The translations under genes were made by a program, and so were the position numbers. Source: an uncultured Thermodesulfobacteriota bacterium (lineage in GTDB: Bacteria > Desulfobacterota > WTBG01 > CAIYCZ01). From it: a stretch of 64,000 nt of DNA. Location of the stretch: the NCBI GenBank assembly GCA_964594075.1, contig CAZQKW010000011.1, positions 1,480 through 65,479 of the forward strand, read 5' to 3'. Below the pieces are notes generated by a model, which did not search any database, was not told where the DNA came from, and worked only from the letters and a program-made list of their open reading frames with translations. Positions 8,309-64,000 of this stretch are shown here, piece after piece (the first letter of the stretch is position 1; every line of letters begins with the position of its first letter).

Positions 8309-9598
<1,290 letters not shown>

Positions 9599-19278: not shown

Positions 19279-19332
19279 ACGTTTACTCCTTCTGACATAT
19301 GCTGTGTATAATTTAATGAGGAACGTTGCTTG

Positions 19333-19836: not shown

Positions 19837-19850
19837 AGGACATGATCCTC

Positions 19851-20555: not shown

Positions 20556-20604
20556 CTGCAGTACCCCGTGGCTTTTTTTGCAATGTAAAAGATCTTCTTA
20601 TTCA

Positions 20605-27207: not shown

Positions 27208-27250
27208 GCTATTTTTTATTCAACAGCCATTACCATCAACTGCGTAGATC

Positions 27251-27937: not shown

Positions 27938-27944
27938 ATATCAA

Positions 27945-28469: not shown

Positions 28470-28514
28470 TCAGATCTCTCTTACATTCAATGAGCTGCAG
28501 CTCACGAGCCTGAA

Positions 28515-29294: not shown

Positions 29295-29769
29295 TCCACT
29301 GCCTCATAATAATACTGCCCGACGTCCTGGCGCCTATCGCATACGCCTGCCCCTTGTTGTTCTGAATATAGACATAGCCGCTGGTGCCGCTCACCAGCCC
29401 CTGGGGCGTAAAGGAGACGACATTATTTAAAAAACTGACGCCGTCGGCAGGCGGCGGCTCTCCGGTCGCTGACTGTGCAGCGTTTCCACAGCCAAAAGAA
29501 ATTCCTGCTGCTAATGCGATTAAATCACTGCCGTCAATCAGGTAACAACGATCATTAACTTTAAATGCAACGCTGATGGTGCGGTTCTGTTTGACCGCAC
29601 AGGAGCGCGCTTTTCGCAGGTGTGAACAAATATTCCGCGCGGAACTTTTAAGCCGATAATCGGGAAGGGCAGTGACGATGTTCGGCACTGCGATAAGCCC
29701 CAAAATGCCAATGATGGCCGAAATTATCATCAATTCAGTGAGACTAAAGCCTTTCTGACAGCCGTGCAT
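29275..29769 (-). CDS. fimT: FimT/FimU-type minor pilin (copy 2)
   Basis: MHGCQKG|FSLTELMIISAIIGILGLIAVP and LRKARSCAV. Confidence 0.6.
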   Translation of the reverse strand: MHGCQKGFSLTELMIISAIIGILGLIAVPNIVTALPDYRLKSSARNICSHLRKARSCAVKQNRTISVAFKVNDRCYLIDGSDLIALAAGISFGCGNAAQSATGEPPPADGVSFLNNVVSFTPQGLVSGTSGYVYIQNNKGQAYAIGARTSGSIIMRQWNGTAWK

Positions 29770-45663: not shown

Positions 45664-46011
45664 ATGAAAGAACTGGTCAAGGTATTTAAAGCGGTCGCTG
45701 ATCCAAACCGCATCAGAATATTAAAGATGCTGCAGCAGAAAAAGATGTGCGTCTGCGAGCTTTCTGCGGCGCTCGGGATCTCCCAACCCAGCGTATCCCG
45801 CCATTTAGCAATGATGAAAGACGCCGGTCTGGTGAGCGATGAGCGCGAAGGCCAGTGGATTAATTATCAACTTAGCGAGGAAAAAGTTAACCAATATGCT
45901 CCGGTCATTATGGAGCATATCAAATCGTGGATAAATGACTACCCCAGAATAAAAGAAGATGCGGCAAAAATAAAGCATCTCAACCGGGAAACGCTGTGTA
46001 AAAAAATATAA
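45664..46011 (+). CDS. arsR: ArsR/SmtB-family metalloregulator
   Basis: ADPNRIRILKMLQQKKMCVCELSAALGISQPSVSRHL wHTH with CVC metal site. Confidence 0.8.
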   Translation: MKELVKVFKAVADPNRIRILKMLQQKKMCVCELSAALGISQPSVSRHLAMMKDAGLVSDEREGQWINYQLSEEKVNQYAPVIMEHIKSWINDYPRIKEDAAKIKHLNRETLCKKI

Positions 46012-46106: not shown

Positions 46107-47204
46107 ATGACTATGCCTGAATCAGTTGCAAAAAAGCTGTCGTTTCTTGACCGTTTTTTAACGCTGTGGATTTTTCTCGCCATGTTTATAGGGGTCGGCT
46201 GGGGTTACATATTCCCCGGCATTGTGAAATTCTGGGACCGGTTTCAGGTTGACACCACCAACATACCTATTGCCATTGGCCTTATTCTTATGATGTATCC
46301 GCCCCTGGCAAAAGTTAAATACGAGGAATTGGGGGAAGTGTTCAGAAACTATAAGGTTTTGGGATTGTCATTAGTCCAGAACTGGGTCGTTGGACCGATT
46401 TTAATGTTCATTCTGGCGATTTTGTTTTTGAGCGGCTATCCCGCCTACATGCAGGGTTTGATTATGATTGGACTTGCTCGTTGCATTGCCATGGTTATTG
46501 TCTGGAACGACCTTGCCAAAGGCGATACCGAGTATTGCGCCGGTCTGGTGGCATTTAACTCAGTATTTCAAGTGCTCTTCTTTTCAGTGTATGCCTGGAT
46601 ATTTATAACCATACTGCCTCCTCTTCTTGGTCTTAAAGGCACAGAAGTTAACGTCACTATTGGCCAGATTGCGCAAAGCGTTTTTATCTATCTCGGCATT
46701 CCGTTCATCGCAGGCATCATTACCCGTTTCACCCTAATAAATATCAAAGACAAGAAATGGTATCATGAAAAGTTTATTCCCAAAATCAGCCCGATTACCT
46801 TGCTCGCACTGCTTTTTACCATTTTAGTGATGTTTTCGCTAAAGGGTGAATACATCGTTAAAATCCCCCTTGATGTTGTCCGGATTGCCATACCGCTGCT
46901 TGTTTATTTTGTGGTCATGTTTTTGGTAACGTTCTACATGAGCAAAAAAGCCGGTGCAAGCTATGCCCAGACGGCAACGCTCTCCTTCACCGCGGCAAGC
47001 AACAATTTTGAGCTGGCGATAGCAGTTGCGGTGGCAGTCTTTGGTATTAGTTCCGGCCAGGCATTTGCAGCCGTCATTGGCCCGCTGGTAGAGGTGCCGG
47101 TGCTCATAGGTTTGGTGAACGTAGCGTTAAAGTTTAAAGAAAAATATTTTTCGTCGGCACCAGAAACACCAATTGATGTGTGTCAGATAAGCTGCACAGA
47201 TTGA
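46107..47204 (+). CDS. acr3: arsenite efflux permease, Acr3 family
   Basis: AGGAGG RBS. 365 aa, 10 TM, with [21 protein letters not shown]...MMYPPLAKV hallmark. Confidence 0.8.
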
Positions 47205-47278: not shown

Positions 47279-47743
47279 TTACAATGTGTGATCAGCGCTC
47301 ATAGGTATGATGTAATTTTTGCAGGAGGCGATAAAATTTTCGACCGCCGTTTTAATCTGATCCCGCACAATTCTTGTTTTGTTTTTTATTTCTTCTGCAG
47401 TGCCGTTAAAGCAAGCGGGGTCTTCAAAGCTCCAGTGTAATCGCTGGGTTATGCCTGGAAATAGAGGACATCGTTCTGAAGCGCTCTGTTCGCATACCGT
47501 TATGACAAAATTATATTTTCTTCCCTGTTTAAAAAAATCAAATACGCTGTTTGTTTGGTTGTGGGAGATATCAAGCCCGACCTCTTTCATAACTTCAATT
47601 GCAACAGGGTTAAGCTGTCCGGGGGACAGTCCGGCACTTTCCGCTTCAAATCTGTCTCCTGCCAAATGATTAAGAAAAGCTTCTGCCATCTGACTGCGAG
47701 CGGAATTATGAACACAGACAAAGAGAACACGTATTTTTTTCAT
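47279..47743 (-). CDS. arsC: arsenate reductase, LMW-PTP family (thioredoxin-coupled)
   Basis: [20 protein letters not shown]-loop (CxxNSxRS), plus downstream Cys residues for the disulfide cascade. Confidence 0.8.
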
Positions 47744-47827
47744 TATATTTGGCCTCCTGTGGTTTTTTTCATCACACATAGTTAATGATTGTTAAGATTT
47801 GATAAAGATTTGAAAAAAAATTGATAG

Positions 47828-48250
47828 ATGTCAAATAATAAAAAGAAAAAAGTCCTTTTTCTCTGCACCGGCAACTCCGCCCGCAGCCAGATGGCGGAAG
47901 GTCTGATGCGCCATTTTCGCGGCGATGAATTTGAGGTCTTCTCCGCAGGGGTGGAGCCCAAAGGGGTGCACCCGCAGGCAATCGAAGCCATGCAGGAGAT
48001 CGGCGTGGATATCTCCGGGCAGCAATCAAAACATGTGAACGATCTGCCAATAAAAGAATTTGACTGCATTATAACCCTCTGTGACCACGCGGCACAGAAT
48101 TGCCCGGTGTTCCCCGGCACGGGAAAACGCATGCATCAGGAGTTTCCCGATCCGGCGCAAGTTCATGGCAGCGAGCACGAGGTGTTAGAAGCCTTCCGAA
48201 AAGTGCGTGACGAACTGAAGCAGTTTATTCTTGCATTCGAAACCACTTAG
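47828..48250 (+). CDS. arsC: second arsenate reductase, LMW-PTP family (divergent from the first)
   Basis: [20 protein letters not shown]-loop, ...CDHAAQNCP. Confidence 0.8.
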   Translation: MSNNKKKKVLFLCTGNSARSQMAEGLMRHFRGDEFEVFSAGVEPKGVHPQAIEAMQEIGVDISGQQSKHVNDLPIKEFDCIITLCDHAAQNCPVFPGTGKRMHQEFPDPAQVHGSEHEVLEAFRKVRDELKQFILAFETT

Positions 48251-48374: not shown

Positions 48375-49673
48375 ATGAACTGGAAAGAGGAATGGAAGCT
48401 GCTGGCATTAATTGCCGGAGCTTTTCTTGTTTGTTTTTATTTGCCAGTAGGCTCGCAGCGCTTTGACAACGCCGTGATGGAAGCCTTGCAACTGGTAAAA
48501 TGGTATGCACGAGAGCATGTGCTGTTATGCCTTGTGCCGGCATTTTTTATTGCCGGCGCCATCTCAGTTTTCGTCAGCCAGGCATCAGTCATGAAATATC
48601 TGGGAGCACGGGCTAACAAAGTTTTGGCATACGGTGTTGCGTCGGTATCCGGAAGCGTGCTTGCGGTGTGTTCCTGCACGGTGCTGCCGCTGTTTGCCGG
48701 CATTTATAAAATGGGTGCCGGGCTTGGTCCTGCCTCGGCGTTTCTTTATTCCGGCCCGGCAATTAATGTGCTGGCGATTATTCTTACGGCACGAATCCTT
48801 GGCATGGAAATCGGCATTGCCCGGGCAGTTGGTGCCGTGGCTTCCAGCATAATAATCGGGCTGTTAATGCATCTCATATTTCGAAAAGAAGAGATTGCAA
48901 AAGTTAATGCGCAAATGGCAATACCTGAGCCCGAGGTTAAGCGTCCGCTCTGGCAAACCACAGTCTATTTTGCCCTGATGGTAGCAATTCTGGTCCTTGC
49001 CAACTGGGGAAAGCCTGACACGCAGGAAGGTTTTTTTTACGCAGTCCATTCCATAAAATGGTATCTGACCGGGATTTCAGCGATAGCTTTTGCCGTAATA
49101 CTGGTTCTCTGGTTTAACCTTGCATGGGTCAAAATAGTATATGCTGCTGTGCCGACCATAGTGCTTGCATTTCTGTTTCCCGGTCAGCCGCTCATAGCCT
49201 TTGGCGCTGCGGTAATAGGTCTTTCCGCAATCACCAGCAAAGATAGCGGCGAGTGCGGAGAATGGTTCAGTGCAAGCTGGGGTTTTACAAAGCAAATTAC
49301 CCCACTGCTTTTGGGAGGGGTTCTGGTATCAGGTCTCCTGCTTGGCCGCCCGGGAAACGAAGGCATTATTCCCAATGCATGGGTCACAAATCTTGTCGGT
49401 GGCAATTCTTTGTGGGCAAACCTGTTTGCCTCAGTTGTCGGCGCCTTTATGTACTTTGCCACGCTCACTGAGGTGCCTATCCTGCAGGGACTTATCGGCA
49501 GCGGCATGGGCAAAGGCCCTGCTCTTTCGTTACTGCTTGCCGGCCCTGCATTGTCGTTGCCGAACATGCTGGTGCTGAACAGTATCATGGGAACTAAAAA
49601 GACGGTGGTGTATTGCTCACTCGTAGTCGTCATGGCGACGGTTACCGGCATGCTTTTCGGCGCTCTGCCATAA
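48375..49673 (+). CDS. arsP: permease of the DUF318/ArsP family (putative organoarsenical efflux)
   Basis: 8-10 TM. AVCSCTVLP motif resembles the ArsP TPFcSCS signature. Context is the ars operon. Confidence 0.6.
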   Translation: MNWKEEWKLLALIAGAFLVCFYLPVGSQRFDNAVMEALQLVKWYAREHVLLCLVPAFFIAGAISVFVSQASVMKYLGARANKVLAYGVASVSGSVLAVCSCTVLPLFAGIYKMGAGLGPASAFLYSGPAINVLAIILTARILGMEIGIARAVGAVASSIIIGLLMHLIFRKEEIAKVNAQMAIPEPEVKRPLWQTTVYFALMVAILVLANWGKPDTQEGFFYAVHSIKWYLTGISAIAFAVILVLWFNLAWVKIVYAAVPTIVLAFLFPGQPLIAFGAAVIGLSAITSKDSGECGEWFSASWGFTKQITPLLLGGVLVSGLLLGRPGNEGIIPNAWVTNLVGGNSLWANLFASVVGAFMYFATLTEVPILQGLIGSGMGKGPALSLLLAGPALSLPNMLVLNSIMGTKKTVVYCSLVVVMATVTGMLFGALP

Positions 49674-49695
49674 CCAATCAGAGGGAGGCTTATTG

Positions 49696-49917
49696 ATGTT
49701 AGATATAACCAAAAAGACACTCACACTTGAACCCCGGGAAGTTATGGAACTTGAGCGGATTATTATTGATGATGACCGGGAAGGTGCTTTTCAGTTTTTA
49801 AAAAAGAACATTTACCAGAGATTTATTGCTTCGCAGCAAGATCATCTCAAATCACACTTTGATGGGTGCAGCGATCCGGCTACTTCATTTTCCCAGGGGC
49901 AAACAAGTAAAAAATAA
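49696..49917 (+). CDS. small hypothetical protein (74 aa)
   Basis: GAGGGAGG RBS 7 nt upstream of ATG. No recognisable motifs. Confidence 0.4.
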   Translation: MLDITKKTLTLEPREVMELERIIIDDDREGAFQFLKKNIYQRFIASQQDHLKSHFDGCSDPATSFSQGQTSKK

Positions 49918-49950: not shown

Positions 49951-51879
49951 ATGATGCTCATGAAAAAAATTATTCTTTTTTTAATCTTTGGTGCATTTTT
50001 CCCCTTAATCTTAATTGCTAAAACAGAGAGTAAAACTAATTCATTTACCGGTGTATGCCCTCCCTTTTACATTAAAGACGAACGGGGAGAGATTATTAAT
50101 CCCGTTACAAATCAAAACACGGATGTTCCTTATAGTCCAAAGCAAACCTGCGGAACAGCAGGCTGTCACAATTATGAAAAAATCACTATGGGTTATCACT
50201 TTCAGCAGGGAAAAGACGAACAGCCAAGTCAGAAGTTAAAAGAACTCTATCAGTGGGTTTTAAGCCCCGGCCAGTACGGCGGCCGGTGGTGAACGCCGGC
50301 ACCCAACTTTCGCCAGTTGGCGAAAAAAGAAAACAGCTCAGCCGCTGTAATTGACTTAACGTCTTTTGAGTTTGCCACAGCCGCTGCCTGCGGAAGCTGT
50401 CACCCTGGCGGCGGTCCCCTTGAGTACGACCGCAAAGGCAACCGTTATGACGTGTTTGCTGCGGACCCTAAAAATAATATCACCTCAGGAGGTGACAACG
50501 GGTTTGATGGCGACTATTTTAAAGCCCGCTGGGCGGAATCCGGGGTGGTTGAAGCTGATTGTCTTCTGTGCCACAGCCCCAGTTATGATATGAGTGCAAG
50601 AAACAAGCAGCTTGCAGTGTTTAATTATAAGTGGTCAGCATCGGCAGGGGCTGGTATCGCGCGCGTAACGGGGGAGGTAAAAAAAGGTGAGAAGCCGGTT
50701 ATCCAGTACCAAACTGATAAATTTAACAGCGACGGACATTTATCTGTGCCCATAATCAAGGAGGTTCCCACGGAGAACTGTTTGTTCTGCCATGCAGAGA
50801 CAGACTGGAAGAAGAAAGGCACCAGTTACAGCCATCGCTTTGATGTGCATCTGCGAGCTGGCATAAAATGTATTGAGTGCCATCCGGCAGGAACCAGTGC
50901 TGCCGATAGCCGAATCAACAGCAAAGAAGAGCACCATTTTGCAAAGGGTGATGATCCGGGGACTTTGGTGAGAGATGATCTTGATAATACAGTGATCACC
51001 TGTCAACAATGCCACGAAAAAGGTTTGCACCGAGCTCCTCTTATGAAGCACGCTTCATTCACTGATGGCAGCTTTGAAGTGCATCAGGAGAAAATCTCCT
51101 GCCAGGCCTGCCATGTTCCTCAGAAAGCGGTCAAGCCAGCACTCATTCAGGATAGCGTTGTATTGAACCCCAAACCCCGCGTGCCGGGTTTAAAACGCAT
51201 CTGGTCATTCTATGGTCCTGATGTCAAGCCGTGGAATTACTACGGAGAAGTTGACCTGACAAAAGGCAAAGGTAAACCGTTGTATTTTTATACCCCGCAA
51301 CTGCGCTGGTATAAGGAAAAAATATATCCGGTCAGCAGTCTTTATTCCATCTGGTATGGATTGAAGACCAATGGGAAGAACGGTCTTGATCAGGTTTTTA
51401 TGCAGGATATCGGGGACATGTGGTCTAACGCACAAGACTATCCCCTTCTTGCCAGCATAACCGATGATAATGGTGACGGCTTCAAGGAGGTTAACCGCTC
51501 AGAAGAAATTGACGCAGCAATTGCTTCCATGACAGCATATTTGAAGAAAAAGGGCAAACTCAATAAAGACCAGAAGGTTGTCTTGGTCAAGGGAAATGAA
51601 GCGCATCTGTCTGGCAAAGAGAAAGTTATGTTAGAGAAGCAGCCCTATGAATACTCAGCATACGGTGCCACCTTCAAATTGAGCCATGATATTGCACCGG
51701 CCAGCGCTGCCCTTGGCGCCGGGGGCTGTGCAGATTGCCACCGCAAAGAGGCGCCATTTTTTACTCAACTTTATATGGCAGAGCCATTCGGCGAAGATGG
51801 AAAGATCCAATGGTTGCCGGCTTATAAGGTGCTCAATTACAGCGAAGAGGCTCTAAAGGAGCAGACTCAGGAAAGGTGA
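49951..51879 (+). CDS. multiheme (7x CxxCH plus one CX4CH) c-type cytochrome with N-terminal signal peptide; the reading frame is interrupted by an in-frame TGA at 50290-50292 (readthrough/selenocysteine candidate, or pseudogene)
   Basis: ORFs 49951-50292 and 50317-51879 are in the same frame. The signal peptide (MKKIILFLIFGAFFPLILIA) is only on the first; the second has all the CxxCH sites, no signal peptide and only a TTG start. A hairpin at 50308-50325 lies 17 nt after the TGA. Confidence 0.6.
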
Positions 51880-51904: not shown

Positions 51905-53242
51905 ATGCAGAAAGGCTTTAACAGCGTTATTATTATTATAAGCGTGCTTATTCCTCATATCCTATACGGAGCCTCGGATGTTGCACATACAAATATCTGG
52001 AATCCGTTAAAGGGTATTGCGCTCGGTTCAGGTAAATTTGATATATCTGGCAGCTTGCGGCTTCGTTATGAATATGTGGAAAATTATAACAGAAAAGAAT
52101 ACGGGCTTAAAAAGAATGACGGCTTTTTGCTGCAGCGGTTCAGACTGGAATTTGATGTGCACTGGGAAGACCGCCTGCGACTTTTTCTGCAGTTCCAGGA
52201 TGCACGGGTATTTGACTATAAGCTCAAAGATCGTGATTTTATTAGCAATCCCAATAAAGACGAACATGAGCTGCACCAGGCATTTGTAGAAGCACAGCCG
52301 GCATCTGTCGTTCCTGTCTATCTGAAGCTGGGCAGGCAGGTGATTGAGTATGGTGACAGTCGCATCTTCGGCCCCGGCGATTGGGGAAACACGGGGCGCG
52401 TGTTATGGGATGCAGCCAAGATCAGTTATCATGACGAGAACTGTGCCATAGATACATTTTACGGCAGACGAATAATACATGATCCGCACCAATTTAATGA
52501 TCATTATGACCGACAGGCGTATGGTTTGTATGGCACTATTTTTATGCCGCAGAAGAACGTTTTTGACGTCTTTTATGTCCTGGAACTTGACAATGAAAAA
52601 GACACCCAAGGAGAGTCAGGAAGTTACGGCGATCTGCGAGTGCATACCGCGGGGTTTAGAATGGCCGGGACATACCAGCGGTTTGATTATGACACGACCT
52701 ATGCCCGTCAGTTTGGCGGCTGGGGACCAGACACAATGAGGGCTTGGGCATTACATACCGGCGGTGGCTATACATTTTCTACCCTCTGGTCTCCACGCAT
52801 CGGGATAGATTATGCGTATGGTTCCGGTGATGATGACCCAACAGACGGAAAACACAAAACATTCAACCCGGCATTTGGCTCTATGGACAAATACTACGGG
52901 TGGATGAATCTTTTTTCATGGCGAAACATTATTAACTGGCAATTCAGTGCATCGGTGAGACCTCACCGGAAACTGAATCTTGTTCTTGACTATCACATGT
53001 TCCGTTTAGCCCAGAACAAGGATGCCTGGTACAGCACCGGCCCTGCATACCGGCGGGATGAAACGGGAAAGAGCGGCAGCGATGTGGGCGAGGAAATTGA
53101 TTTTACCCTTCACTTTTCTGTAACAGAGCATCTAAAACTCAGGGCAGGTTATGCACACTTCTTCCCGGGAGATTTTGTTGAGAACACCGGCGCGCATGGA
53201 AGTGCAGATTGGGTCCATTGCCAGTGGCTTTGGTTTTTTTAA
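51905..53242 (+). CDS. outer-membrane beta-barrel of the alginate-export (AlgE-like) family
   Basis: Signal peptide; alternating amphipathic strands; LRLRYEYVEN...; many aromatic-Gly strand ends; C-terminal ...WLWFF. Confidence 0.55.
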   Translation: MQKGFNSVIIIISVLIPHILYGASDVAHTNIWNPLKGIALGSGKFDISGSLRLRYEYVENYNRKEYGLKKNDGFLLQRFRLEFDVHWEDRLRLFLQFQDARVFDYKLKDRDFISNPNKDEHELHQAFVEAQPASVVPVYLKLGRQVIEYGDSRIFGPGDWGNTGRVLWDAAKISYHDENCAIDTFYGRRIIHDPHQFNDHYDRQAYGLYGTIFMPQKNVFDVFYVLELDNEKDTQGESGSYGDLRVHTAGFRMAGTYQRFDYDTTYARQFGGWGPDTMRAWALHTGGGYTFSTLWSPRIGIDYAYGSGDDDPTDGKHKTFNPAFGSMDKYYGWMNLFSWRNIINWQFSASVRPHRKLNLVLDYHMFRLAQNKDAWYSTGPAYRRDETGKSGSDVGEEIDFTLHFSVTEHLKLRAGYAHFFPGDFVENTGAHGSADWVHCQWLWFF

Positions 53243-53273: not shown

Positions 53274-53687
53274 ATGAAAATTACCATCATCGGCGTGGTC
53301 CCTCCCTGTCCCCGGTGCCAGCGGATTTACGATCTAACTATAGAAGCGGTTAACGAATTGGGGGCAAAAGCAGAGATAAAGAAAATTGCCTATGATTCTG
53401 ATGAAGCAAAACAGTTCGGCAGGGTGGGCACTGTTCATGATATTGCCGAATGGGCGCAGATTGACATCGACTGGAGAAAAATCTGGGACATTGCCACAGA
53501 AGGCTGGTCGCAGGAACTTGATGAACTGATGATGCCGTGCAAACAGCGGGCCGGCATTGAAGGATGGCTGATGACTCCGGTATTGTTGCTTGACGACACG
53601 GTTGCCGCCATGGGCTATGTTCCAGACAAAGAATACATCAAAACAGCAATAAAAAAACACTTGCAGAAAGGAGCGCACAACGCATGA
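53274..53687 (+). CDS. thioredoxin-fold CxxC protein (Trx_3-like core split by a ~50-aa insertion)
   Basis: KITIIGVVPPCPRCQ N-terminus and TPVLLLDDTVAAMGYVPDKEYIK C-terminus match the Trx_3 fold; the middle segment is extra. Its stop overlaps the next start (ATGA). Confidence 0.5.
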   Translation: MKITIIGVVPPCPRCQRIYDLTIEAVNELGAKAEIKKIAYDSDEAKQFGRVGTVHDIAEWAQIDIDWRKIWDIATEGWSQELDELMMPCKQRAGIEGWLMTPVLLLDDTVAAMGYVPDKEYIKTAIKKHLQKGAHNA

Positions 53688-53914
53688 AAATCGAAATTCT
53701 GGGAACCGGTTGCCCGAAATGTAAGAAGCTTTTTGAGAATGCTCAGGAAGCGGCAAAAGCGCTCGGTATAGCAGCCGAGATAGTAAAAGTGGAAGATATC
53801 CAGCAGATCATGAATGCCGGCGTCATGATTACGCCGGCACTGGCAGTTGACGGCGAGGTCAAGGCTGCGGGAAAAGTATTAAGTGTGGATGAAATCAAGA
53901 AAATTATCGAGTAA
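53684..53914 (+). CDS. small thioredoxin-family protein (Trx_3 / redox-active disulfide protein 2 type)
   Basis: MKIEILGTGCPKCKKL...MITPALAVDGEVKAAGKVLSVDEIKKIIE; 76 aa. Confidence 0.7.
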   Translation: MKIEILGTGCPKCKKLFENAQEAAKALGIAAEIVKVEDIQQIMNAGVMITPALAVDGEVKAAGKVLSVDEIKKIIE

Positions 53915-53986: not shown

Positions 53987-54439
53987 ATGATGAAAAAAAT
54001 ACATCTGGTAATAATAATAGCTGCATGGTGCTGCGGTCTCGTGGCAAACAGCCTGTTCAATAGCGCCCGGGCAGAAACGCGGAAAGAGCAGAAACCGGAT
54101 AAAGGAACCGTCGTCGCCTATTACTTTCATGGAAATTTCCGCTGTTATAGCTGTTTCACGATTGAACAGTATGCAAAAGAAGCAATTGAAAAATATTTTC
54201 CTGAACAGCTTAAAAACGGCAGGCTTTCATTTCAGCCCATAAATATTGAAGAGAAGGGAAATGAACATTTTATACAGGATTATCAGCTTTATACCCGCTC
54301 TCTGATCCTTGCTGTATTTAAGAATGGCAAACAGGTTAAGTGGATAAACCTTGAGAAAGTGTGGAATTATATTAGAGACCGGGATGCCTTTTATAACTAT
54401 GTAAAAACCGAAGTTGAAAAATATTTAAAGCACCTATAA
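53987..54439 (+). CDS. periplasmic (signal-peptide) thioredoxin-fold CxxC protein
   Basis: Signal peptide MMKKIHLVIIIAAWCCGLVANSLF. VVAYYFHGNFRCYSCF CxxC motif. Confidence 0.5.
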   Translation: MMKKIHLVIIIAAWCCGLVANSLFNSARAETRKEQKPDKGTVVAYYFHGNFRCYSCFTIEQYAKEAIEKYFPEQLKNGRLSFQPINIEEKGNEHFIQDYQLYTRSLILAVFKNGKQVKWINLEKVWNYIRDRDAFYNYVKTEVEKYLKHL

Positions 54440-54443: not shown

Positions 54444-55139
54444 ATGGAACTGTCTTTTCTTCCGCTTGTTTCCGCTTTATGGCTGGGTATTCTGACATCG
54501 GTCAATCCCTGCCCGCTTGCTTCAAATATAGCGGCAGTGTCTTTTATCATGAAGCGCATAGACAGATCTTCGGTTGTCTTGTCCTCGGGTTTTTCCTATA
54601 CGCTGGGCAGAATGACCTGTTATACGGTTCTGGGCGTGCTGCTCACCTCATCGCTGCTGGCCATTCCCCAGACTGCCCAGTTTCTGCAGAAACATATGAA
54701 CCAGGTCATGGGACCGGTCTTACTGTTCACCGGGTTATTTTTGCTCGGTCTGATTAAAGTCCCCGTCACCAGCTTTTCATTATCGGACCGTGTCAACAGC
54801 CGTATGGCCGACACAGGTGTCATGAGCTCATTTCCGCTGGGTGTTCTATTTGCCCTCTCCTTTTGTCCGGCATCAGCCGCCATATTCTTCGGCAGTCTGC
54901 TGCCCCTGTCGCTCAAACATAGTTCACCCGTTTTATTTCCCGCGGTCTATGGTATTGGCACGGGCCTGCCGGTGATTGCGTTTGCGTTTTTTATTTCTTT
55001 CGGGGCAAAAAATATCGGCCTCCTGTTCAAGAAGGTGACCGCCGTTGAATACTGGATCAGAAAGGCAACCGGCATAATATTTATCCTGATCGGGATATAT
55101 TATATCATGGTCCACATTTTCTATCTACAGATACTATAA
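54444..55139 (+). CDS. ccdA: CcdA/DsbD-transmembrane-domain family thiol:disulfide transporter
   Basis: TM1 SVNPCPLA and TM4 ALSFCPASAAIF conserved Cys pair. 6 TM. Confidence 0.75.
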   Translation: MELSFLPLVSALWLGILTSVNPCPLASNIAAVSFIMKRIDRSSVVLSSGFSYTLGRMTCYTVLGVLLTSSLLAIPQTAQFLQKHMNQVMGPVLLFTGLFLLGLIKVPVTSFSLSDRVNSRMADTGVMSSFPLGVLFALSFCPASAAIFFGSLLPLSLKHSSPVLFPAVYGIGTGLPVIAFAFFISFGAKNIGLLFKKVTAVEYWIRKATGIIFILIGIYYIMVHIFYLQIL

Positions 55140-55140: not shown

Positions 55141-56427
55141 TTGTTTTGGTATGGTTCGTTTGGTCAACAAACAATGAAATTCAAACCTGAATTGCACGCA
55201 ACTGTAGATGAGCACAATCGTTTAATCCTGCCACCAGAAATTGTTGCTCAATTAGGATTACGTCCCGGCAATAGCATTCCTATCAGTCCGGGACGGCACT
55301 GCATATCTGTGCGCCAGCCAATAACGCATCTGAAAAAGATCTATATTGAACCGACCAATCAATGCAATTTGTCCTGCCGTATGTGCATTCGCTCGGTATG
55401 GAAAGAGCCTCTGGGGCAGATGACGCTTGAAACGTTCAATCATATTATTCAAAGTTTGCGCGAGCTTTCGGGACCGTTAACCGTTGTATTCGGCGGCTTC
55501 GGCGAGCCGTTGTTTCACCCGGATATCATCACCATGATAGCAGCCCTGAAAGAACTTGGCGCATCGGTTGAATTAATTACCAATGGCACGTTGCTGACCG
55601 AAGAGTTTTCGCGCGCGTTCCTTGAAACCGGCATTGATGTGCTGTGGCTCTCCCTGGATGGCGCATCACCGGAAAGCTATGCCGATGTCCGGCTTGGAGC
55701 GATGCTGCCGGAAGTGCTGGCAAATATGTCCCGCCTGCGTTACAGTTCATGGGCATACCAGTATCCCCAGCCGCATTTGGGTATCGTTTTCGTCGCTATG
55801 AAGCGCAATATTGCGGACCTGCCGGCAGTCATGACCATCGGGTCGCAACTGAAGGCTGATCGTTTTATTATAACTAATGTGCTTCCATATACTTCGGAAC
55901 TGCTGCCCGAAGTGCTTTATACCCGAACCATAGGCGATATTGCTGTGGCGCCGTCTCCTTGGGCGCCGTATATCAATTTTTCAAAAATGGACATGAATGA
56001 TGACACCCGGGAGACTCTCCATCGTGTGATCCGCTCCTGGCGAATAACCAGTTATCATAAAGACGACATGGGCGAATCGGCAAATTATTGCCCGTTTATT
56101 GAAGGCGGCGCAACTGCGATAAGCTGGGACGGCTCGGTCAGTCCCTGCCTGCCGCTCATGCATTCCCACGAAAGTTATTTGCACGACCGGCGGCGCTTTT
56201 CCCGGCGCCACGTCATCGGCAATATTGCAAACCAGTCGTTGCGTGATTTGTGGAACAACCCTCAGTATGTCGCCCTGCGACAACGGGTGCAGGACTTTGA
56301 CTTCTCGCCGTGCACGTTTTGCGGCGGCTGCGATCTTTCGGAAGCCAATGAAGAAGATTGCTTCGGCAACGTCTTCCCGACCTGTGGCGGCTGTCTCTGG
56401 GCACAGGGTGTGATTCAATGTCCGTAA
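55141..56427 (+). CDS. radical SAM enzyme with N-terminal AbrB/MazE-like swapped-hairpin domain and C-terminal Cys-rich SPASM/twitch-like domain (paralog 1); start may be ATG 55174
   Basis: HNRLILPPEIVAQLGLRPG (AbrB-like). CNLSCRMC CxxxCxxC. GGFGEPL. C-terminal CPFIEGG...SPCLP...CTFCGGC...CGGCLWAQG. Confidence 0.7.
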   Translation: MFWYGSFGQQTMKFKPELHATVDEHNRLILPPEIVAQLGLRPGNSIPISPGRHCISVRQPITHLKKIYIEPTNQCNLSCRMCIRSVWKEPLGQMTLETFNHIIQSLRELSGPLTVVFGGFGEPLFHPDIITMIAALKELGASVELITNGTLLTEEFSRAFLETGIDVLWLSLDGASPESYADVRLGAMLPEVLANMSRLRYSSWAYQYPQPHLGIVFVAMKRNIADLPAVMTIGSQLKADRFIITNVLPYTSELLPEVLYTRTIGDIAVAPSPWAPYINFSKMDMNDDTRETLHRVIRSWRITSYHKDDMGESANYCPFIEGGATAISWDGSVSPCLPLMHSHESYLHDRRRFSRRHVIGNIANQSLRDLWNNPQYVALRQRVQDFDFSPCTFCGGCDLSEANEEDCFGNVFPTCGGCLWAQGVIQCP

Positions 56428-56501
56428 TTGCTGAAAGATTAAAAGAAAAAGGCGCACCGCTGTGAAAAAGGGTCTCACGAGTTGTTTTTCTTGCGCCCTC
56501 C

Positions 56502-57782
56502 TTGCCGGTGCGCCCCTGTGCCTATTTGCCTCTGCTTATGAAACTCAAACCCGATTCATACGCGCATATTGATAGCGACGGCCGGCTTGTTATTCCGCAG
56601 GAAATTGCATTCTGCTATGGATACAAACCCGGAGCCGTTGTGCCTCTGAATGAGGCTGAACAAAACATAACGTTGCGCTTGCCGCCCACCCACCTGAAAA
56701 AAGTCTATATAGAGCCTACCAATCGCTGCAATCTTGCGTGCCGCATGTGCATCCGCAGAACCTGGGATGAACCGCTGGGCAGAATGGCGCAAAATATTTT
56801 TAAGCGTATCCTTGAAGGCCTGCGTGATTTCTCTCCGACCCCTTCCATTGTGTTCGGCGGGTTTGGTGAACCGCTCTCTCATCCTGATATTGTGGCAATG
56901 GTTCAGGAAGCGAAACACCTCAAGGCGCAGGTGGAGTTGATTACCAATGCAACCCTGCTTTCTGAGGATCTTGCCCGCAGTCTCGTAGCCGCGCGTCTTG
57001 ATGTGCTGTGGGTTTCAATTGAGGGGGCCAAAACGGCAAGTTATGCAGACGTGCGGTTAGGGGGTGAATTAACCACGGTGCTGGATAATATACGCCGGTT
57101 CCGCGACAGCAGACAGGCATACCGGACGGACATTGGCGTCGTGTTTGTTGCCATGAAACGCAACGTCCACGAACTGCCGGCTGTCATGCAGCTCGCCAAA
57201 GACCTCGGCGCAAACCGTTTTCTGGTAACCAATGTTCTGCCCTATACAGAAGAGCTGTGCGCCGAAACGCTCTATACCTGCGAACCGATTCACGAGACCA
57301 ATCCATTTTTAAATCTGAATAATTCGTTTGAACTTTGTAAAATGGATTTCAACGAGGCAACCAGCATGCCGCTGCAAACCATAATCCATCATGCGAGTAT
57401 CCTGAACGACACTGCGACCAATGCCAGCATGATGCAGAATTACTGCCCTTTCATAGAGGGCGGTTCAGTTGCGATCTGCTGGGATGGACGTGTCAGCCCG
57501 TGTCTGCCGCTCATGCATACCCACACGAGTTTCTTAAGAGACCGAAAACGGCTTACCAAATGTTTTCATGTCGGCTCGATTGCGGATCAGGGTCTGAAGG
57601 AAATCTGGAATTCCGCTGTTAACATCGCTTTTCGGCGGCGCATCCAGGCCTTTATGTTTGCTTCCTGCACGTCGTGCAAAGGCTGTGAGCTGGCGGAGAA
57701 GAATGAAACAGACTGTTTGGGCAATGGCTTTCCATCCTGCGGCGGCTGTTTATGGGCGCAGGGATACATCCGGTGTCCGTAA
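56502..57782 (+). CDS. radical SAM enzyme with AbrB-like N-domain and SPASM-like C-domain (paralog 2; about 60% identical to paralog 1); start may be ATG 56538
   Basis: DGRLVIPQEIAFCYGYKPG. CNLACRMC. C-terminal CPFIEGG...SPCLP...CTSCKGC...CGGCLWAQG. Confidence 0.7.
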   Translation: MPVRPCAYLPLLMKLKPDSYAHIDSDGRLVIPQEIAFCYGYKPGAVVPLNEAEQNITLRLPPTHLKKVYIEPTNRCNLACRMCIRRTWDEPLGRMAQNIFKRILEGLRDFSPTPSIVFGGFGEPLSHPDIVAMVQEAKHLKAQVELITNATLLSEDLARSLVAARLDVLWVSIEGAKTASYADVRLGGELTTVLDNIRRFRDSRQAYRTDIGVVFVAMKRNVHELPAVMQLAKDLGANRFLVTNVLPYTEELCAETLYTCEPIHETNPFLNLNNSFELCKMDFNEATSMPLQTIIHHASILNDTATNASMMQNYCPFIEGGSVAICWDGRVSPCLPLMHTHTSFLRDRKRLTKCFHVGSIADQGLKEIWNSAVNIAFRRRIQAFMFASCTSCKGCELAEKNETDCLGNGFPSCGGCLWAQGYIRCP

Positions 57783-58756: not shown

Positions 58757-60163
58757 TTATTGAATAATACTGCCCAATGTATCCTGATGTTTCTTAAGCG
58801 CAGCCAAAATCTGGGGGGTTTCATTGAGTCCTTCCACAATCAGTTTACAGGACTGGGTTGCGCCGGTGAGAGCATCCACATCTTTCTTAAGGTGCAGCGG
58901 CAGTTTCTGGCCTGCTTTCAGCATAACGCGCTGCAAATAATCGTCCGCCGAGATCGGCACGCCGTATAAATCTATGGATTCTATCAACACGATATTTTTT
59001 ATTTTGCCGCTCTGGTCAAAAGAATACACAAAATGCACATTGGTGCACACGTCGCACAGGATATCTTTGAAAACCTCCCGCACAAAAATTTTTCCATTGT
59101 TTTCTGCAACGCCGATATACACCGTCTGCTCATTTTCGAGGATTATTTTCTGAAATTTCTTAACGCCCGGGGCAACTCTGCGTATATAGTCCATAAGCAA
59201 ATCTTCGGGAAGCTCTTCTCTGAAATAACTGCCGGCTTTTGCCAGCACGCCGTTTAGATTCTCCAGTGAAATTTCGTCCTGCATATAGCGTATTAAGCCC
59301 TTTTTATTGATGATAAAAACTTTATTGCTGATAACCGCACGATTGGGGGAAATTTCAACGCCATAGAGCTTTGCCACCTCTCCATTTTCATCAACGTAAA
59401 TGGGATAATTGACATAGTATCTTTCCCTAAATCTTTTTACCTCCTCCGCGGAATCGCCCACGGCAATGCGGATAATGTCCAGGTCTTCCCGCTTATACCG
59501 GCTGTAAACGGTTTTAAGAATTTCTATAGCCTTTTTTACTCCTTCATTGCGGATTGATAAAAACGTGAGGGTAATGGTTTTTTTGCCAATACTGTCATAA
59601 AGATGGAAGGTTTCCCCTTCGGTATTTTTGAGTGAAAAATCCGGCGGCCGGTTCCAGAGTGCGACCCCCACCGGCGTCTCCTTTTCAGCAATTGCTCGCT
59701 CTATGACCGGGGCAAGTTCGGATTCTGCCGGCAATTTGCCGCGGAACCGGATAGTACCGTTTCTGTCTATGATGTCTATAAGCGGCACTGTGCGCACAAA
59801 ATATTTTTCGTATATTTGTTTCTGAGGATCTGGAACAAGGTCGTAGTCCGGTTTAAATTTCTTTTTAAACTCAAGCACTTCTTCACGATCGTTGCCGATA
59901 GCAATCCCGATTACTCGCAGGTTCTTATACTTCTGCACAATGTCGTTGATTCTGGCGACTTCTTCGCGACAGGAGTGGCAATAGGTGTTGAAATGCACGA
60001 GCATCAAAACAGTGCCCGAGAATCGGGATAGAGAAATTATATTGCCGTCAATATCCTGCAGAGAAAATTCAGGGGCTTCCGCCCCGGTCATGTCGGCCGG
60101 TGCGGGGGAGGGATATAGGACTAAAATATATATTATAATTATAATAATGAACACTTTGTTCAT
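58757..60163 (-). CDS. periplasmic fusion protein: two TlpA/redoxin-like thioredoxin domains (first with CHSC active site) plus C-terminal FMN-binding (NosR/NqrC-type) domain
   Basis: Signal peptide. APEFSLQDIDGN...VHFNTYCHSCREE; second redoxin-like repeat PPDFSLKNTEGE... without CxxC; C-terminal DALTGATQSCKLI (SGAT-type FMN attachment motif). Confidence 0.55.
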   Translation of the reverse strand: MNKVFIIIIIIYILVLYPSPAPADMTGAEAPEFSLQDIDGNIISLSRFSGTVLMLVHFNTYCHSCREEVARINDIVQKYKNLRVIGIAIGNDREEVLEFKKKFKPDYDLVPDPQKQIYEKYFVRTVPLIDIIDRNGTIRFRGKLPAESELAPVIERAIAEKETPVGVALWNRPPDFSLKNTEGETFHLYDSIGKKTITLTFLSIRNEGVKKAIEILKTVYSRYKREDLDIIRIAVGDSAEEVKRFRERYYVNYPIYVDENGEVAKLYGVEISPNRAVISNKVFIINKKGLIRYMQDEISLENLNGVLAKAGSYFREELPEDLLMDYIRRVAPGVKKFQKIILENEQTVYIGVAENNGKIFVREVFKDILCDVCTNVHFVYSFDQSGKIKNIVLIESIDLYGVPISADDYLQRVMLKAGQKLPLHLKKDVDALTGATQSCKLIVEGLNETPQILAALKKHQDTLGSIIQ

Positions 60164-60310: not shown

Positions 60311-60999
60311 CTACCGCAACGCTGTCTCTCTAACGGCGGCGTGATCCGCCATGCCGCCTAAAGCGGCGCGCAGAATCTGGCGCCCGATCTGGCTGCCAAC
60401 GGTTCGCGCAGCCTGTTTGGCCAGCGTTTCCACCATGCCTTGCCGGCGTTTGATGCCCCATAGTAAATCGCCAATCATGGCCCGGCTTTCAGACGGCGCT
60501 GCCGTCTCGTCTCGGTTTGCTTCCGACCCAGCCGCTTGCTTTTCCTCGGTCCGTTGTTTCAAAATTTCATAGGCCGATTTCAAGCGTCGCGGTTTGGGTG
60601 TCGTTATTCAGGCTTAAGTATCCGACTGAGCAAACTCGGTCCCATTTCGCTGCTCGAAGTGCGCACGGGGTGACCAGCGGTGCCAAACACGTCCCAGAAT
60701 AATATCGGGTTCGCTTCATGAGCGTATCCCTCAATGTCGATGCTGACAACGCGCTGCTGAATTTTCTCGTTAGGTGTTCCGGCTATCGCCAGACCCGAGA
60801 CGTCGCCCTTTACATCAGCCATGAAGACCGGCACGCCCAACCGCGATAAGCCCTCAGCCAATACAAGCAAAGAAATGGTCTTGCCAGTCCCGGTGACGCA
60901 AGCAATCAGCCCATGGCAGTTGCCATACTGGGCGAGTAAATAAACAGGCCGATCGCCTTTGCCAATAAGAATCTGGTTCATGGTTTTTTTTTGCGACAA
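60311..60999 (-). pseudogene. remnant of a DUF853 (YjgR-like) P-loop NTPase gene: N-terminal ~125 aa and C-terminal ~90 aa retained, central ~300 aa deleted
   Basis: ORF 60604-60999 (ILIGKGDRPVYLLAQYGNCHGLIACVTGTGKT...FWDVFGTAGHPVRTSSSEMGPSLLSRIL) matches the DUF853 N-terminus. ORF 60311-60583 (...TLAKQAARTVGSQIGRQILRAALGG) matches the DUF853 C-terminus. Only about 20 nt separate them. Confidence 0.55.
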
Positions 61000-61222
61000 C
61001 CATGACTCGCGCTGGCCAAGATCGCGGTGCAGATCTACATATTGCTGTTTATTATATTTCTATTCTTGTTCACTTAATATAAGCAACCTCATAGCAAGTC
61101 AAGGTTTTTGATTAACTAATTTTCTTGAAAAAACCTCGGTGGTTTTTTATATTATTGTCAATAAAATACTGCAGGTATGCCAGAAAGCCCCCATTTTTAC
61201 TGCCAAGGGTGAATTGTTTCAC

Positions 61223-62062
61223 ATGAAATCAGATGACCTTAAACAGATCGTAAAGGAAAAATACGGCGCGATTGCAAAGCAGGAAATTTCGCGGTTACCA
61301 TCATGTTCCTGTTGCTGTCCGGATGCGTCTGCACGCACAGATTATTCAACTTTTAGCGAAGACTATTCCAAACTGGAGGGCTATAACCCTGATGCAGATT
61401 TTGGTCTTGGCTGCGGCATGCCAACCGAAACAGCGCGAATTAAGCCCGGCGATACCGTCATTGATCTGGGCTCAGGCGCGGGAAATGATGTGTTTGTAGC
61501 CCGACGGCTGGTGGGAGAATCGGGAAAAGTCATTGGCATTGACATGACGCCGGCGATGATAGAAAAAGCTCTGGAAAATAACCGAAAACTGGGTTATGCC
61601 AATGTGGAATTCCGTTTGGGTGAAATTGAAAACCTGCCGGTTGATGACAATACGGCAGACGTGGTAATAAGCAACTGCGTGTTAAATCTGGTGCCCGACA
61701 AGCTGGAGGCCTATCGGGAAATCTATCGAGTACTGAAACCGGGCGGCCATTTCAGCATTTCCGATGTGGTGCTCACCGGCGATCTGCCGCCGACTCTGCA
61801 ATCTGCGGCAGAAATGTATGCCGGCTGTGTTGCCGGCGCGCTTAAAAAAGAAGTTTATATGCGGGTGATAAAAAAAGCCGGTTTTATAAACGTTGCCCTG
61901 GCAAAAGAAAAGCCTATGACCATTCCTAACGAGATGCTTTCCCAGTTTCTTTCGGAGCCCGAGCGGACAGAATTTAAAAAGGATGTCTCTCCCCTTCTCA
62001 GCATCACCGTGTATGGAGAAAAGCCCGAATTGATCGGCGGCGGCCGCTGCTGCTGCGATTGA
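61223..62062 (+). CDS. arsM: arsenite S-adenosylmethionine methyltransferase
   Basis: SAM MTase motif VIDLGSGAGNDVF. Conserved Cys cluster near the N-terminus (SCSCCCPD) and CVLNLVPDK. Cys-rich C-terminus GGGRCCCD. Confidence 0.8.
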   Translation: MKSDDLKQIVKEKYGAIAKQEISRLPSCSCCCPDASARTDYSTFSEDYSKLEGYNPDADFGLGCGMPTETARIKPGDTVIDLGSGAGNDVFVARRLVGESGKVIGIDMTPAMIEKALENNRKLGYANVEFRLGEIENLPVDDNTADVVISNCVLNLVPDKLEAYREIYRVLKPGGHFSISDVVLTGDLPPTLQSAAEMYAGCVAGALKKEVYMRVIKKAGFINVALAKEKPMTIPNEMLSQFLSEPERTEFKKDVSPLLSITVYGEKPELIGGGRCCCD

Positions 62063-62401: not shown

Positions 62402-64000
62402 TTAAGCATCATGACGAAGTTCTTCAAGCCCCAATGCTGCCAATTTTCTTGTTTGTATTCGGCTGTCAGCTTCCCATCCTCTAACCCGGTAATAATCTTT
62501 AATCATTTTGTCAACCGGCGGCAGATGATTTACTGCGGGTCCATAATTTCTTTTTAAGGTAGTAAAGCGTTCATGCAGATAGTCTGAAGAAGAATCACAT
62601 CCGCGTCTGAGATTAATGAGATGCTTGAGATTGAATATCCTCTCGCCCGACAGCATCAGAGAGGCAAAGTCCTGCTCCATGCCGGTAACAAGATTAAACC
62701 ATTCAACGACTTCTTTTGCGGTTATGCCCGAAAACCCTGTGGCAGCATAATTTTGCGCATAACCGGCATGTGAGAAAGCGCACAGCACCAGCGAATTGAG
62801 AATACAGCCATAATCCTGCCCGCGGGCAACCATTTCAGGAGCCATATCACCATTAAATCTGATAGTGGCCATTTCCATCAAATCAAAGCCCTCAACGCGC
62901 GGGTCTGCTGCACCGGTGTGGATTGCGCCGCGCGGGTCAGTGGCATATGCAAGGGCAAGGAAGTTGTGGGCGCGGGGATCGTGGGCCGGCACTTCAAGAC
63001 CTTTTACTTCAATGGCATATTTTTCTGCTCCCTTCCCTATCATCTGCGCAGCGCGCCGTGTGCCCTCGGCAAGTATCGCGCCGAAACCTTCTCGCACGCA
63101 GATTTTTTCCAACATTGAAAGCATCGCTGTGCCGTTGCCAAAGGTGAGTTGAATGCCATCGGTATCTTTTTCGTTAATCAATCCCTGCGCAAAGCATTCC
63201 ATGGCAAAGGAGATAACACCGCCCGCAGATATGCTGTCTATACCGTTGCGGTTGCATAAATCATATGCTTTCTGCACCAGCCCCAGGTCTGTTATGCCAC
63301 ACTGCGAACCAAGCGGAGCCATTGATTCCCATACATTTTGCCGTAGCCCAGCTTTAACATATGATTCAACGCATCCTGTCGGACAGCTCGCGCATTGATA
63401 CGGGTGCGCTTCCCGGACATGGTTTTCGATTTCCTTCAAAACAGAGTTTTTAAACCCTGCAAGGTATCCATCACGCCAGTTGTTGACGCCATGCCGTCCA
63501 TCATCAACAAACATACTAAAAACTGCTGCGGCCTTTTTAAAACAGTGTTCAGGCTCCTTTATCATCACCGGCACAGCTTTGCGTATGGCAGGCAGCAGTT
63601 TTTCCTTCTCTCTCACTGCAACGCTCTGGCTTCCGAGAACGGCTATTGCCTTCAGGTTCTTCGAACCCATCACCGCCCCGACGCCACAGCGAGCTGCAGT
63701 TCGGGCCGCAGAGCCGTCATGGACAATGGCTGCAAACTTTACCAGCCGTTCACCGGCACTGCCGATTGCCGCTACTTTGACCCTTTCGCCGCACAGGTTG
63801 CAAAGAAGCTGCTTGGTTTCAAATGTATCGCGCCCTGCAATGTCTTCCGCATCTTCTATTGCCACAGACTGATTTATTATTTTAAGATAAACGGGATGCT
63901 CTGCCCTGCCTGTTATAACGATGCCGTCAAAGCCAGCCCGTTTTAGCTCTGTGCCCCAGGTTCCTCCGGCATACGACTCCCCCCATACGCCGGTGAGTGG
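62402..64000 (-). CDS. aor: tungsten-containing aldehyde:ferredoxin oxidoreductase (AOR family), 5' end beyond the window
   Basis: Frame open to nt 64000 (...PLTGVWGESYAGGTWGTELKRAGFDGIVITGRAEHPVYLKI...). AOR domain 2/3 similarity throughout, including CNLCG and DSISAGG regions. Confidence 0.8.
   Translation of the reverse strand, partial: PLTGVWGESYAGGTWGTELKRAGFDGIVITGRAEHPVYLKIINQSVAIEDAEDIAGRDTFETKQLLCNLCGERVKVAAIGSAGERLVKFAAIVHDGSAARTAARCGVGAVMGSKNLKAIAVLGSQSVAVREKEKLLPAIRKAVPVMIKEPEHCFKKAAAVFSMFVDDGRHGVNNWRDGYLAGFKNSVLKEIENHVREAHPYQCASCPTGCVESYVKAGLRQNVWESMAPLGSQCGITDLGLVQKAYDLCNRNGIDSISAGGVISFAMECFAQGLINEKDTDGIQLTFGNGTAMLSMLEKICVREGFGAILAEGTRRAAQMIGKGAEKYAIEVKGLEVPAHDPRAHNFLALAYATDPRGAIHTGAADPRVEGFDLMEMATIRFNGDMAPEMVARGQDYGCILNSLVLCAFSHAGYAQNYAATGFSGITAKEVVEWFNLVTGMEQDFASLMLSGERIFNLKHLINLRRGCDSSSDYLHERFTTLKRNYGPAVNHLPPVDKMIKDYYRVRGWEADSRIQTRKLAALGLEELRHDA

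Follow-up and report, generated by a model that had tools for sequence, protein, structure and literature searches.

Multiheme c-type cytochromes containing selenocysteine (Sec) have been proven biochemically in the Desulfobacterota (PMC13510729). MccSep/ExtKL of Geobacter sulfurreducens (GSU2937-2936; PDB 9wt8, 9wt9), characterised in 2026, is a pentaheme Sec cytochrome c and polysulfide reductase, which combines the heme-ligating C239 with the catalytic U325 (PMC13510729). Among the prokaryotic selenoproteins, a review of the same year names ExtKL, the GSU2204 family, and a single octaheme protein of the Otr family (TIGR04315); the last of these is annotated as such in GenBank (WP_331457571.1) (PMC13188914). 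Here, we analyse a 64,000-nucleotide stretch of DNA from an uncultured Thermodesulfobacteriota bacterium (contig CAZQKW010000011.1; below, the window), which contains at positions 49951-51879 of the forward strand a gene for an octaheme cytochrome c with one in-frame TGA. Judged from comparative sequence data, the UGA at 50290 is very probably decoded as Sec, which would give a full-length octaheme cytochrome. The gene is almost certainly intact and is the first representative of a so far uncatalogued selenoprotein family with eight hemes, whose genes are routinely cut in two by gene callers. The original prediction for this locus, made from the letters of the window, had regarded a Sec-containing multiheme cytochrome as unusual. 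This is half true: precedents are on record (PMC13510729, PMC13188914), and the cytochrome described here belongs to none of them. The family is absent from the catalogue of the review (PMC13188914) and, by direct sequence test, is none of ExtKL, GSU2204, and Otr. The novelty lies in the family itself, the position of Sec near the N-terminus, the scale of the mis-annotation, and the location in arsenic resistance (ars) islands; the recoding mechanism itself is ordinary.

The gene consists of a single 642-codon frame on the + strand, whose sole internal stop, TGA 50290-50292, separates a 113-codon 5' segment from 528 codons on its 3' side. The N-terminus of the 113-residue segment resembles a signal peptide (MKKIILFLIFGAFFPLILIA); its approximate extent, read straight from the letters, is 49951-50022 (MMLMKKIILFLIFGAFFPLILIAK), and an ATG at 49960 is a possible alternative start. 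There follow the codon of Cys36 (50056-50058, in the motif GVCPPF) and heme site 1, which is of the CX4CH type (CGTAGCH, 50149-50169); Cys36 as well as C67, C72, and H73 of this site are invariant in alignment A1. Codon 114 is the in-frame TGA, where homologues have an invariant Cys. A hairpin resembling a selenocysteine insertion sequence (SECIS) occupies 50308-50325, with the stem formed by 50308-50314 and 50319-50325 and the loop by 50315-50318. Heme sites 2-8 lie within 50389-51741; these are CXXCH motifs at 50389, 50560, 50779, 50869, 51001, 51100, and 51727, and all eight sites are invariant across the family. The codons of the invariant non-motif His residues are located at 50197 (His83, upstream of this span), 50848, 50932, 51049, 51082, and 51685. 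Multiple CXnCH sites and an export leader, both read from the letters, thus characterise the product as a periplasmic multiheme c-type cytochrome. If the downstream part is called in the manner of a gene finder, an open reading frame (ORF) of 520 residues results, which starts at TTG 50317 and has neither a leader nor a Shine-Dalgarno-like sequence before the TTG. The coordinates confirm the arrangement described originally, namely a 113-residue ORF with signal peptide and one CX4CH site and, in the same frame behind a single TGA, a leaderless 520-residue ORF with a TTG start and seven CXXCH sites. TGA is the normal terminator for 19 of the 55 ORFs of at least 110 residues in the window, including the cytochrome gene itself (51877-51879); an alternative genetic code is therefore ruled out. 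When the window was scanned for other recoding, 50290 was the only credible in-frame TGA. A scan for promoters and terminators gave counts close to chance and was uninformative.

The comparison with homologues argues that this TGA is a codon and not a lesion. The joined protein had 1512 homologues in a database search, whereas an identical protein was not found on record; the column of the TGA was read in the full-length proteins among the top 120. Cys was found in 100 of 100 cases, in the motif PG(N/Q)YGGxW-C-(S/T)PAP; these full-length Cys-type homologues comprise 639-647 residues and cover 97-100% of the 642-codon frame. The 20 closest relatives (65-89% identity), annotated with lengths of about 371-521 residues (most 502-521), start just past the TGA column, which points to the same gene being split in annotation. 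At the level of DNA, TGA occupies the exact codon in 13 distinct loci (51-89% identity) from independent metagenomes and metagenome-assembled genomes (MAGs), including one Planctomycetota MAG and one Guaymas 'Deltaproteobacteria' MAG. In total, the column holds TGT or TGC in 37 loci (Cys-type) and TGA in 15 (Sec-type). In all eight complete short Sec-type genes and in L002, which belongs to a longer form described below, a leader and eight heme sites are retained and the frame has a single internal stop; every Sec-type relative starts with a hydrophobic N-terminal leader. The eight codons from the TGA to the TTG encode TPAPNFRQ, which matches the family-invariant residues P116, A117, P118, R121, and Q122; these codons must therefore be translated. 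In a neighbour-joining tree, Sec-type and Cys-type genes interleave, which is the pattern of other selenoprotein families. Of the two options first offered for the locus, selenocysteine is strongly supported by the Cys found throughout the aligned orthologues, the conserved TGA, and the hairpin, whereas a fresh pseudogene is refuted by the occurrence of the TGA in 13 loci.

A bacterial SECIS, as known from fdhF and as sought by bSECISearch, has an apical loop located 16-22 nt from the UGA, G/U in this loop, and an upper stem of 7-8 bp. The hairpin of the cytochrome gene, UUUCGCC-AGUU-GGCGAAA, comprises 18 nt with a perfect 7-bp stem (-8.8 kcal/mol folded alone); the spacer between UGA and stem is 15 nt, and the AGUU loop begins 22 nt after the UGA. 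Stem, loop, and position had been given correctly in the original prediction; its spacing of 17 nt was off by about 2. Like bacterial SECIS elements, the hairpin is a stem-loop within the coding sequence directly 3' of the UGA; unlike them, it is very short, near-invariant across subfamilies, and without an evident bulged U or lower stem. No other perfect 7-bp hairpin exists near 50308-50325, and the 46 hairpins of this kind in the 64-kb window correspond to an expectation of 0.013 per 18-nt placement window.

Conservation of this element follows the TGA. The exact hairpin was found at the codons F-R-Q-L-A-K in 12 of the 13 distinct Sec-type loci; in the variant of L001, the loop is GUU and there is one C·A mismatch. 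Of the 57 fetched loci, 15 contain the degenerate motif TTYCGCCRGTTGGCGRAA, always just 3' of the TGA; all 15 are Sec-type and comprise 12 of the 13 distinct loci as well as the distant subfamily, and no Cys-type locus contains the motif. Of the seven aligned stem pairs, 6.7 are formed in Sec-type loci versus 3.0 in 32 Cys-type loci (Mann-Whitney p=1e-7), and the minimum free energies of 30-nt segments are -9.8 kcal/mol versus -4.0 kcal/mol. The nearest Cys-type relative keeps the peptide NFRQLA, but with differing codons (ttt cgt cag ctc gcc), and the stem is gone. Synonymous variation, determined for conserved degenerate columns of the eight complete Sec-type genes, is 0.05 in the hairpin versus 0.50 gene-wide; in a scan for synonymous constraint only 2 of 258 windows were as low as the hairpin. 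In the distant subfamily represented by L056 (positions 3980-4009 of this locus), the context of the TGA is ...GMMGKH-U-PPSFRQLAKK, and a hairpin identical in sequence comes after a spacer of 9 nt, two codons shorter. One compensatory stem change, U-A to C-G, was observed in L032. Because covariation is scarce, the case for a SECIS rests on the contrast between Sec-type and Cys-type loci and on synonymous constraint, not on compensatory changes; on these grounds the hairpin originally singled out as a SECIS-type feature proves to be conserved and Sec-specific. Two further structures were rejected as functional elements. The GC palindrome ccggcc-N8-ggccgg, which had been noted on the 5' side of the TGA, is real (50267-50286), but is not kept in relatives and is probably incidental. 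In the single-sequence fold, the key pair of a helix enclosing the UGA is broken in 4 of 13 sequences.

The correspondence of Cys and UGA, the conservation of the UGA, the coding conservation across it, and the constrained, Sec-specific hairpin together argue that the UGA is a Sec codon. During translation, UGA 50290 would be recoded as Sec; the hairpin would serve as a bacterial SECIS and recruit SelB with Sec-tRNA(Sec), and the ribosome would proceed into the 528 downstream codons. The product would be an octaheme cytochrome c of about 640 residues, exported by the Sec secretion pathway, with Sec114 in place of an otherwise invariant Cys. We infer that SelB and Sec are used, and not another amino acid. 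Several observations weigh against this interpretation. None of selA, selB, selC, and selD is located within the 64-kb window, and a tRNA-Sec was found neither in the window nor in ten related loci. No Rfam SECIS family matches the hairpin; the only RNA match of the Rfam scan of the window was a tRNA-Lys. Covariation is thin, as the stem is invariant apart from the one compensatory pair, and the 4-bp core CGCC/GGCG can result from the RQLA codons alone, as in the Cys-type locus L044.

Among the alternatives that dispense with Sec, read-through independent of a SECIS survives best. A near-cognate tRNA (Trp or Cys) or low-efficiency decoding would then produce a Cys- or Trp-containing protein, and the hairpin would only slow the ribosome; insertion of Cys at UGA under selenium limitation in other bacteria lends this some plausibility. 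We regard it nevertheless as highly improbable, since position, size, and apical-loop G/U of the hairpin fit SelB-dependent elements, a lineage needing Cys could use TGC as its tree neighbours do, and the long-term retention of TGA plus hairpin across subfamilies argues for a Sec-specific benefit. The chances are slimmer still for two genes, i.e. a 113-residue monoheme protein that ends at the TGA and a 520-residue heptaheme protein made separately from TTG 50317. Automatic annotation of about 20 relatives does call a separate downstream protein of 505-521 residues from that point, but the called 'start' is not constant (LAKK in some relatives, MTSF in others), as is often seen with caller artefacts, and no ribosome-binding site precedes TTG 50317. 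Moreover, a leaderless downstream protein could not reach the heme-attachment machinery, the 24-nt 'intergenic' stretch codes for family-invariant residues, and the Cys-type relatives are all single fused proteins. A fresh pseudogene or a sequencing error, in which a sense codon (TGC or TGT for Cys, TGG for Trp) was recently mutated to or miscalled as TGA, takes a single base change but has next to no chance of being right: the same TGA is found in 13 distinct sequences of independent samples with 51-89% protein identity, both halves are intact with eight heme sites kept, and the hairpin is co-conserved with TGA only, so that independent identical nonsense mutations or errors would be needed, which is not credible. 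The comparative data effectively exclude the pseudogene, sequencing-error, and two-gene readings.

The full-length cytochrome with a predicted Sec114 could not be assigned to a described family. Above cut-off, Pfam detects generic multiheme domains only (Cytochrome_C7, Cytochrom_c3_2, MtrC/MtrF domain II/IV). None of the NCBIfam models represents the family; the best score was 29.8 bits (methanogenesis heptaheme), and neither NF040886 (ExtKL) nor NF041027 (GSU2204-family CXXCH selenoprotein) matched at E<=0.1. With the Otr family it shares eight hemes, the periplasmic location, and a weak local similarity of residues 292-393 in the central heme-packing region; its score of 28 bits is, in contrast, far below the TIGR04315 cut-off of 375, and it is thus not a member. 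Searching the PDB with the protein and with a 57-sequence family profile gave only noise-level matches to NrfA and NapB; the MccSep chains 9wt8/9wt9, which are present in the set searched, were matched by neither at E<=1. A fold comparison with an AlphaFold2 model of a Cys-type homologue, which is of moderate quality, gave no match. When 1.84 billion representatives were searched with the family profile, 402 clusters (50% identity) were obtained at E<=1e-30, and every member of the family clusters is named 'hypothetical protein'. The first start codon past the Sec site ([LM]A[KAR]K.N...) is exactly where about 14 of the top 150 superfamily representatives begin; probably, many further subfamilies are Sec-type and mis-annotated. 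Long-form relatives (P0027, P0082, L001, L002), among which L001 and L002 are Sec-type, carry a C-terminal cytochrome b561 membrane domain (PF01292/DUF4405), and in L053 the DUF4405 is encoded by a separate gene downstream of the cytochrome. The short form in the window has no cytochrome b561/DUF4405 partner nearby.

MccSep resembles the system described here in several respects. Both are periplasmic multiheme c-type cytochromes whose gene is split in annotation at one in-frame UGA, which is followed by a SECIS-like hairpin; in both, the phylogeny shows Sec-type homologues intermingled with Cys-type ones. Both possess a second strictly conserved non-motif Cys, which ligates the active-site heme in MccSep and has a putative role of this kind here, and in some loci of our family genes for a rhodanese and an outer-membrane porin are nearby. 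In contrast, there is no detectable sequence homology between the two, and the number of hemes is five in MccSep versus eight here. Sec is residue 325 of 450 and belongs to a C-terminal Ig-like domain in MccSep (motif PDG-U-PTP), whereas it is residue 114 of 642 near the N-terminus in the cytochrome of the window (GGRW-U-TPAP). The genomic contexts also differ, being the ext cluster, which includes the porin gene extI (PMC5877670), versus an ars island.

The invariant residues allow us to propose how hemes and Sec may cooperate. Besides the His residues of the eight CXnCH sites, six non-motif His (H83, H300, H328, H367, H378, H579) and two non-motif Cys are invariant; the latter are C36 (GVCPPF) and C114, the position taken by Sec in the window. 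His occupies position 36 in distant full-length relatives, within the shared context [CH]-P-x-F/I-x-L; for this reason, Cys36 probably serves one heme as distal ligand, which would give a His/Cys heme in the core family. Given only six invariant distal His for eight hemes, Sec114 would probably be the catalytic nucleophile beside this heme or else the ligand of the remaining heme; the former is the likelier by analogy with MccSep and its pair of heme-ligating C239 and catalytic U325. The proposal that residues 36 and 114 lie beside a heme is weakened by the low confidence of the AlphaFold2 model around the Sec/Cys loop, where the predicted local distance difference test (pLDDT) score is below 50. 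Electrons would travel along the heme chain; in the long-form relatives, the fused cytochrome b561 domain links this chain to the quinone pool and would be their entry or exit.

The substrate may be indicated by the genes surrounding the cytochrome, which form an ars island. Upstream, genes for ArsR (45664-46011, Pfam HTH_5), Acr3 (46107-47204, SBF), two ArsC proteins of the low-molecular-weight protein tyrosine phosphatase type (47279-47779 on the - strand and 47828-48250, both LMWPc), and an ArsP_1 permease (48375-49673, PF03773) were identified. A 74-residue ORF without Pfam match (49693-49917, +) lies just upstream of the cytochrome gene. An outer-membrane beta-barrel protein of the Alginate_exp family is encoded immediately downstream (51905-53242, +; PF13372, E=1e-69). 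It is followed on the + strand by genes for an ArsE-like thioredoxin-fold protein (53274-53687), a small CxxC thioredoxin_3 protein (53684-53914), an ArsF-like protein (53987-54439), and an ArsG-like DsbD_2 membrane protein (54444-55139), a block recognised by means of the NCBIfam models TIGR00412, NF040494, and NF040495, and by two tandem radical SAM/SPASM genes (55141-57782). At the far end of the island, the arsenite methyltransferase ArsM is encoded (61139-62062, +; NF008823, 344 bits versus a cut-off of 263).

The same association recurs elsewhere. Among 26 loci with adequate flanks, which had been chosen by cytochrome similarity alone, tblastn detected ars-type genes on the same strand in 22. 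ArsR, Acr3, ArsC, ArsP, ArsM, and ArsF/G-like proteins accompany both Cys-type and Sec-type genes there; ArsP was found in 11 of the 26 loci, and an Alginate_exp-type porin adjoins the cytochrome gene in 13. Pfam gene tables gave the same picture for the Cys-type locus L048 (66% identical), the Sec-type locus L050, and the distant long-form loci L054 and L055. The organoarsenical detoxification genes ArsEFG and ArsP (NF040494, NF040495, TIGR00412, PF03773) are thus recurrent neighbours of the cytochrome gene. Homologues of the 74-residue ORF (tblastn, 46-89% identity) occur upstream of the cytochrome in L015, L038, L045, L048, and L052, directly so only in L015, L038, and L052 and at a distance of 5-6 kb in L045 and L048; its product may be a dedicated chaperone or regulator. 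A literature search found no c-type cytochrome as a component of an ars island, and we know of none that has been described.

Since the family sits in ars islands beside ArsP, a porin, and DsbD/thioredoxin-type proteins, an arsenical is the most likely substrate, and that the cytochrome acts directly on arsenicals is a tentative proposal to which we assign a little less than an even chance. ArsP would supply trivalent arsenicals to the periplasm, where the arsenical would be bound by the Cys/Sec pair; trivalent arsenicals are classically bound by such a pair. Candidate reactions are the oxidation of exported trivalent (methyl)arsenicals or the reduction of pentavalent ones. Extended further, this would make the family a new arsenic-transforming class, namely periplasmic octaheme cytochromes linked to the quinone pool, which hold a trivalent or pentavalent (organo)arsenical between a heme-ligating Cys and Sec for its anaerobic oxidation or reduction. 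This wider proposal is doubtful at present. In one possible variant, methylarsenite exported by ArsP would be the substrate of an oxygen-independent counterpart of ArsH; in another, the enzyme would be an ArrAB-independent reductase of arsenate or methylarsenate. Such a class would extend over Desulfobacterota, Planctomycetota, Acidobacteriota, Verrucomicrobiota, and other phyla, would use Cys in most lineages, and would be systematically mis-annotated.

Three points count against a role in arsenic metabolism: the link consists of gene neighbourhood only, L047, L051, and L056 are without ars neighbours (L056 is flanked by a sigma-54 two-component system and DUF533), and the rhodanese gene that follows the cytochrome in L045 and L052 equally suits sulfur or selenium chemistry. 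With the same recoding, the protein could be a MccSep-like reductase of polysulfide, elemental sulfur, or selenite, or a cytochrome for thiol-redox reactions in general; its location in ars islands would then reflect co-selection, for example of sulfide production that thiolates or precipitates arsenic. As in MccSep, a multiheme cytochrome of the periplasm combines Sec with a second conserved Cys, the rhodanese genes of L045 and L052 together with the adjacent porin echo the rhodanese ExtH, the porin ExtI, and ExtKL of Geobacter, and the three loci devoid of ars genes fit as well. We deem this other chemistry unlikely, albeit a serious contender: the arsenic-specific ArsP, Acr3, ArsC, ArsM, and ArsR dominate 22 of the 26 loci across phyla, psr-, sox-, and dsr-type sulfur genes were not seen in the gene tables of L048, L050, L054, and L055, and the cytochrome has no sequence homology to MccSep.

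Some further features of the window deserve mention. The best match of the radical SAM/SPASM pair is 'tungsten cofactor oxidoreductase radical SAM maturase' (296 and 292 bits versus a cut-off of 380), and the pair accompanies the cytochrome gene in L045, L048, L051, and L038; its target for maturation may be the cytochrome and not the aldehyde:ferredoxin oxidoreductase, whose gene (62402-64000, -) runs off the end of the window. At 58757-60163 (-), a 468-residue double ResA/AhpC-TSA thiol-disulfide oxidoreductase with a leader is encoded, which is conserved beside the cluster in L045. It matches NCBI selenoprotein models weakly (WAxxUGC, SelL-related) and is Cys-type here; the ResA-like gene and the small thioredoxin_3 genes were rejected as further cases of recoding for being Cys-type. 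Two short adjacent ORFs at 60311-60999 (-) align with the HerA_C helicase profile over its positions 7-123 and 413-497 only, which looks like the remnant of an internally deleted HerA-like ATPase. Two tandem paralogous clusters (13726-21108 and 21898-29769, -) each encode four prepilin-type minor pilins and a giant PilY1-like protein, of 1617 and 1769 residues, respectively, the larger one with a PA14 domain. The adenosylhomocysteinase encoded at 8309-9592 (-) has its best named relatives in Dissulfuribacter thermophilus and in Desulfobacteraceae/Thermodesulfobacteriota MAGs (77-78%); an unnamed NCBI sequence is 96% identical. The window would accordingly stem from an uncultured Desulfobacterota lineage without a member in the set of species-representative genomes. 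The named relatives belong to the Desulfobacterota, a phylum with documented Sec multiheme cytochromes (PMC13510729), and we counted this in favour of recoding.

If the UGA is read as proposed, a large uncatalogued family is added to the selenoproteins, whose genes appear in gene calls and in NCBI-sourced records as two pieces, a 'hypothetical 114-aa protein' and a leaderless '505-520-aa cytochrome'. The family would be a further one of Sec multiheme cytochromes, which has no detectable homology to MccSep, the one characterised to date, and seems to have arrived convergently at the same arrangement, a Sec beside a probably Cys-ligated heme. This apparent convergence strengthens the idea that the combination of Sec with a Cys-ligated heme is of general use in catalysis. 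The ars-island context suggests that a periplasmic redox step is still missing from the anaerobic metabolism of arsenic or organoarsenicals; the gene is thus a candidate for ArrAB-independent arsenate respiration or for anaerobic redox cycling of methylarsenicals, activities that are now without enzymes.

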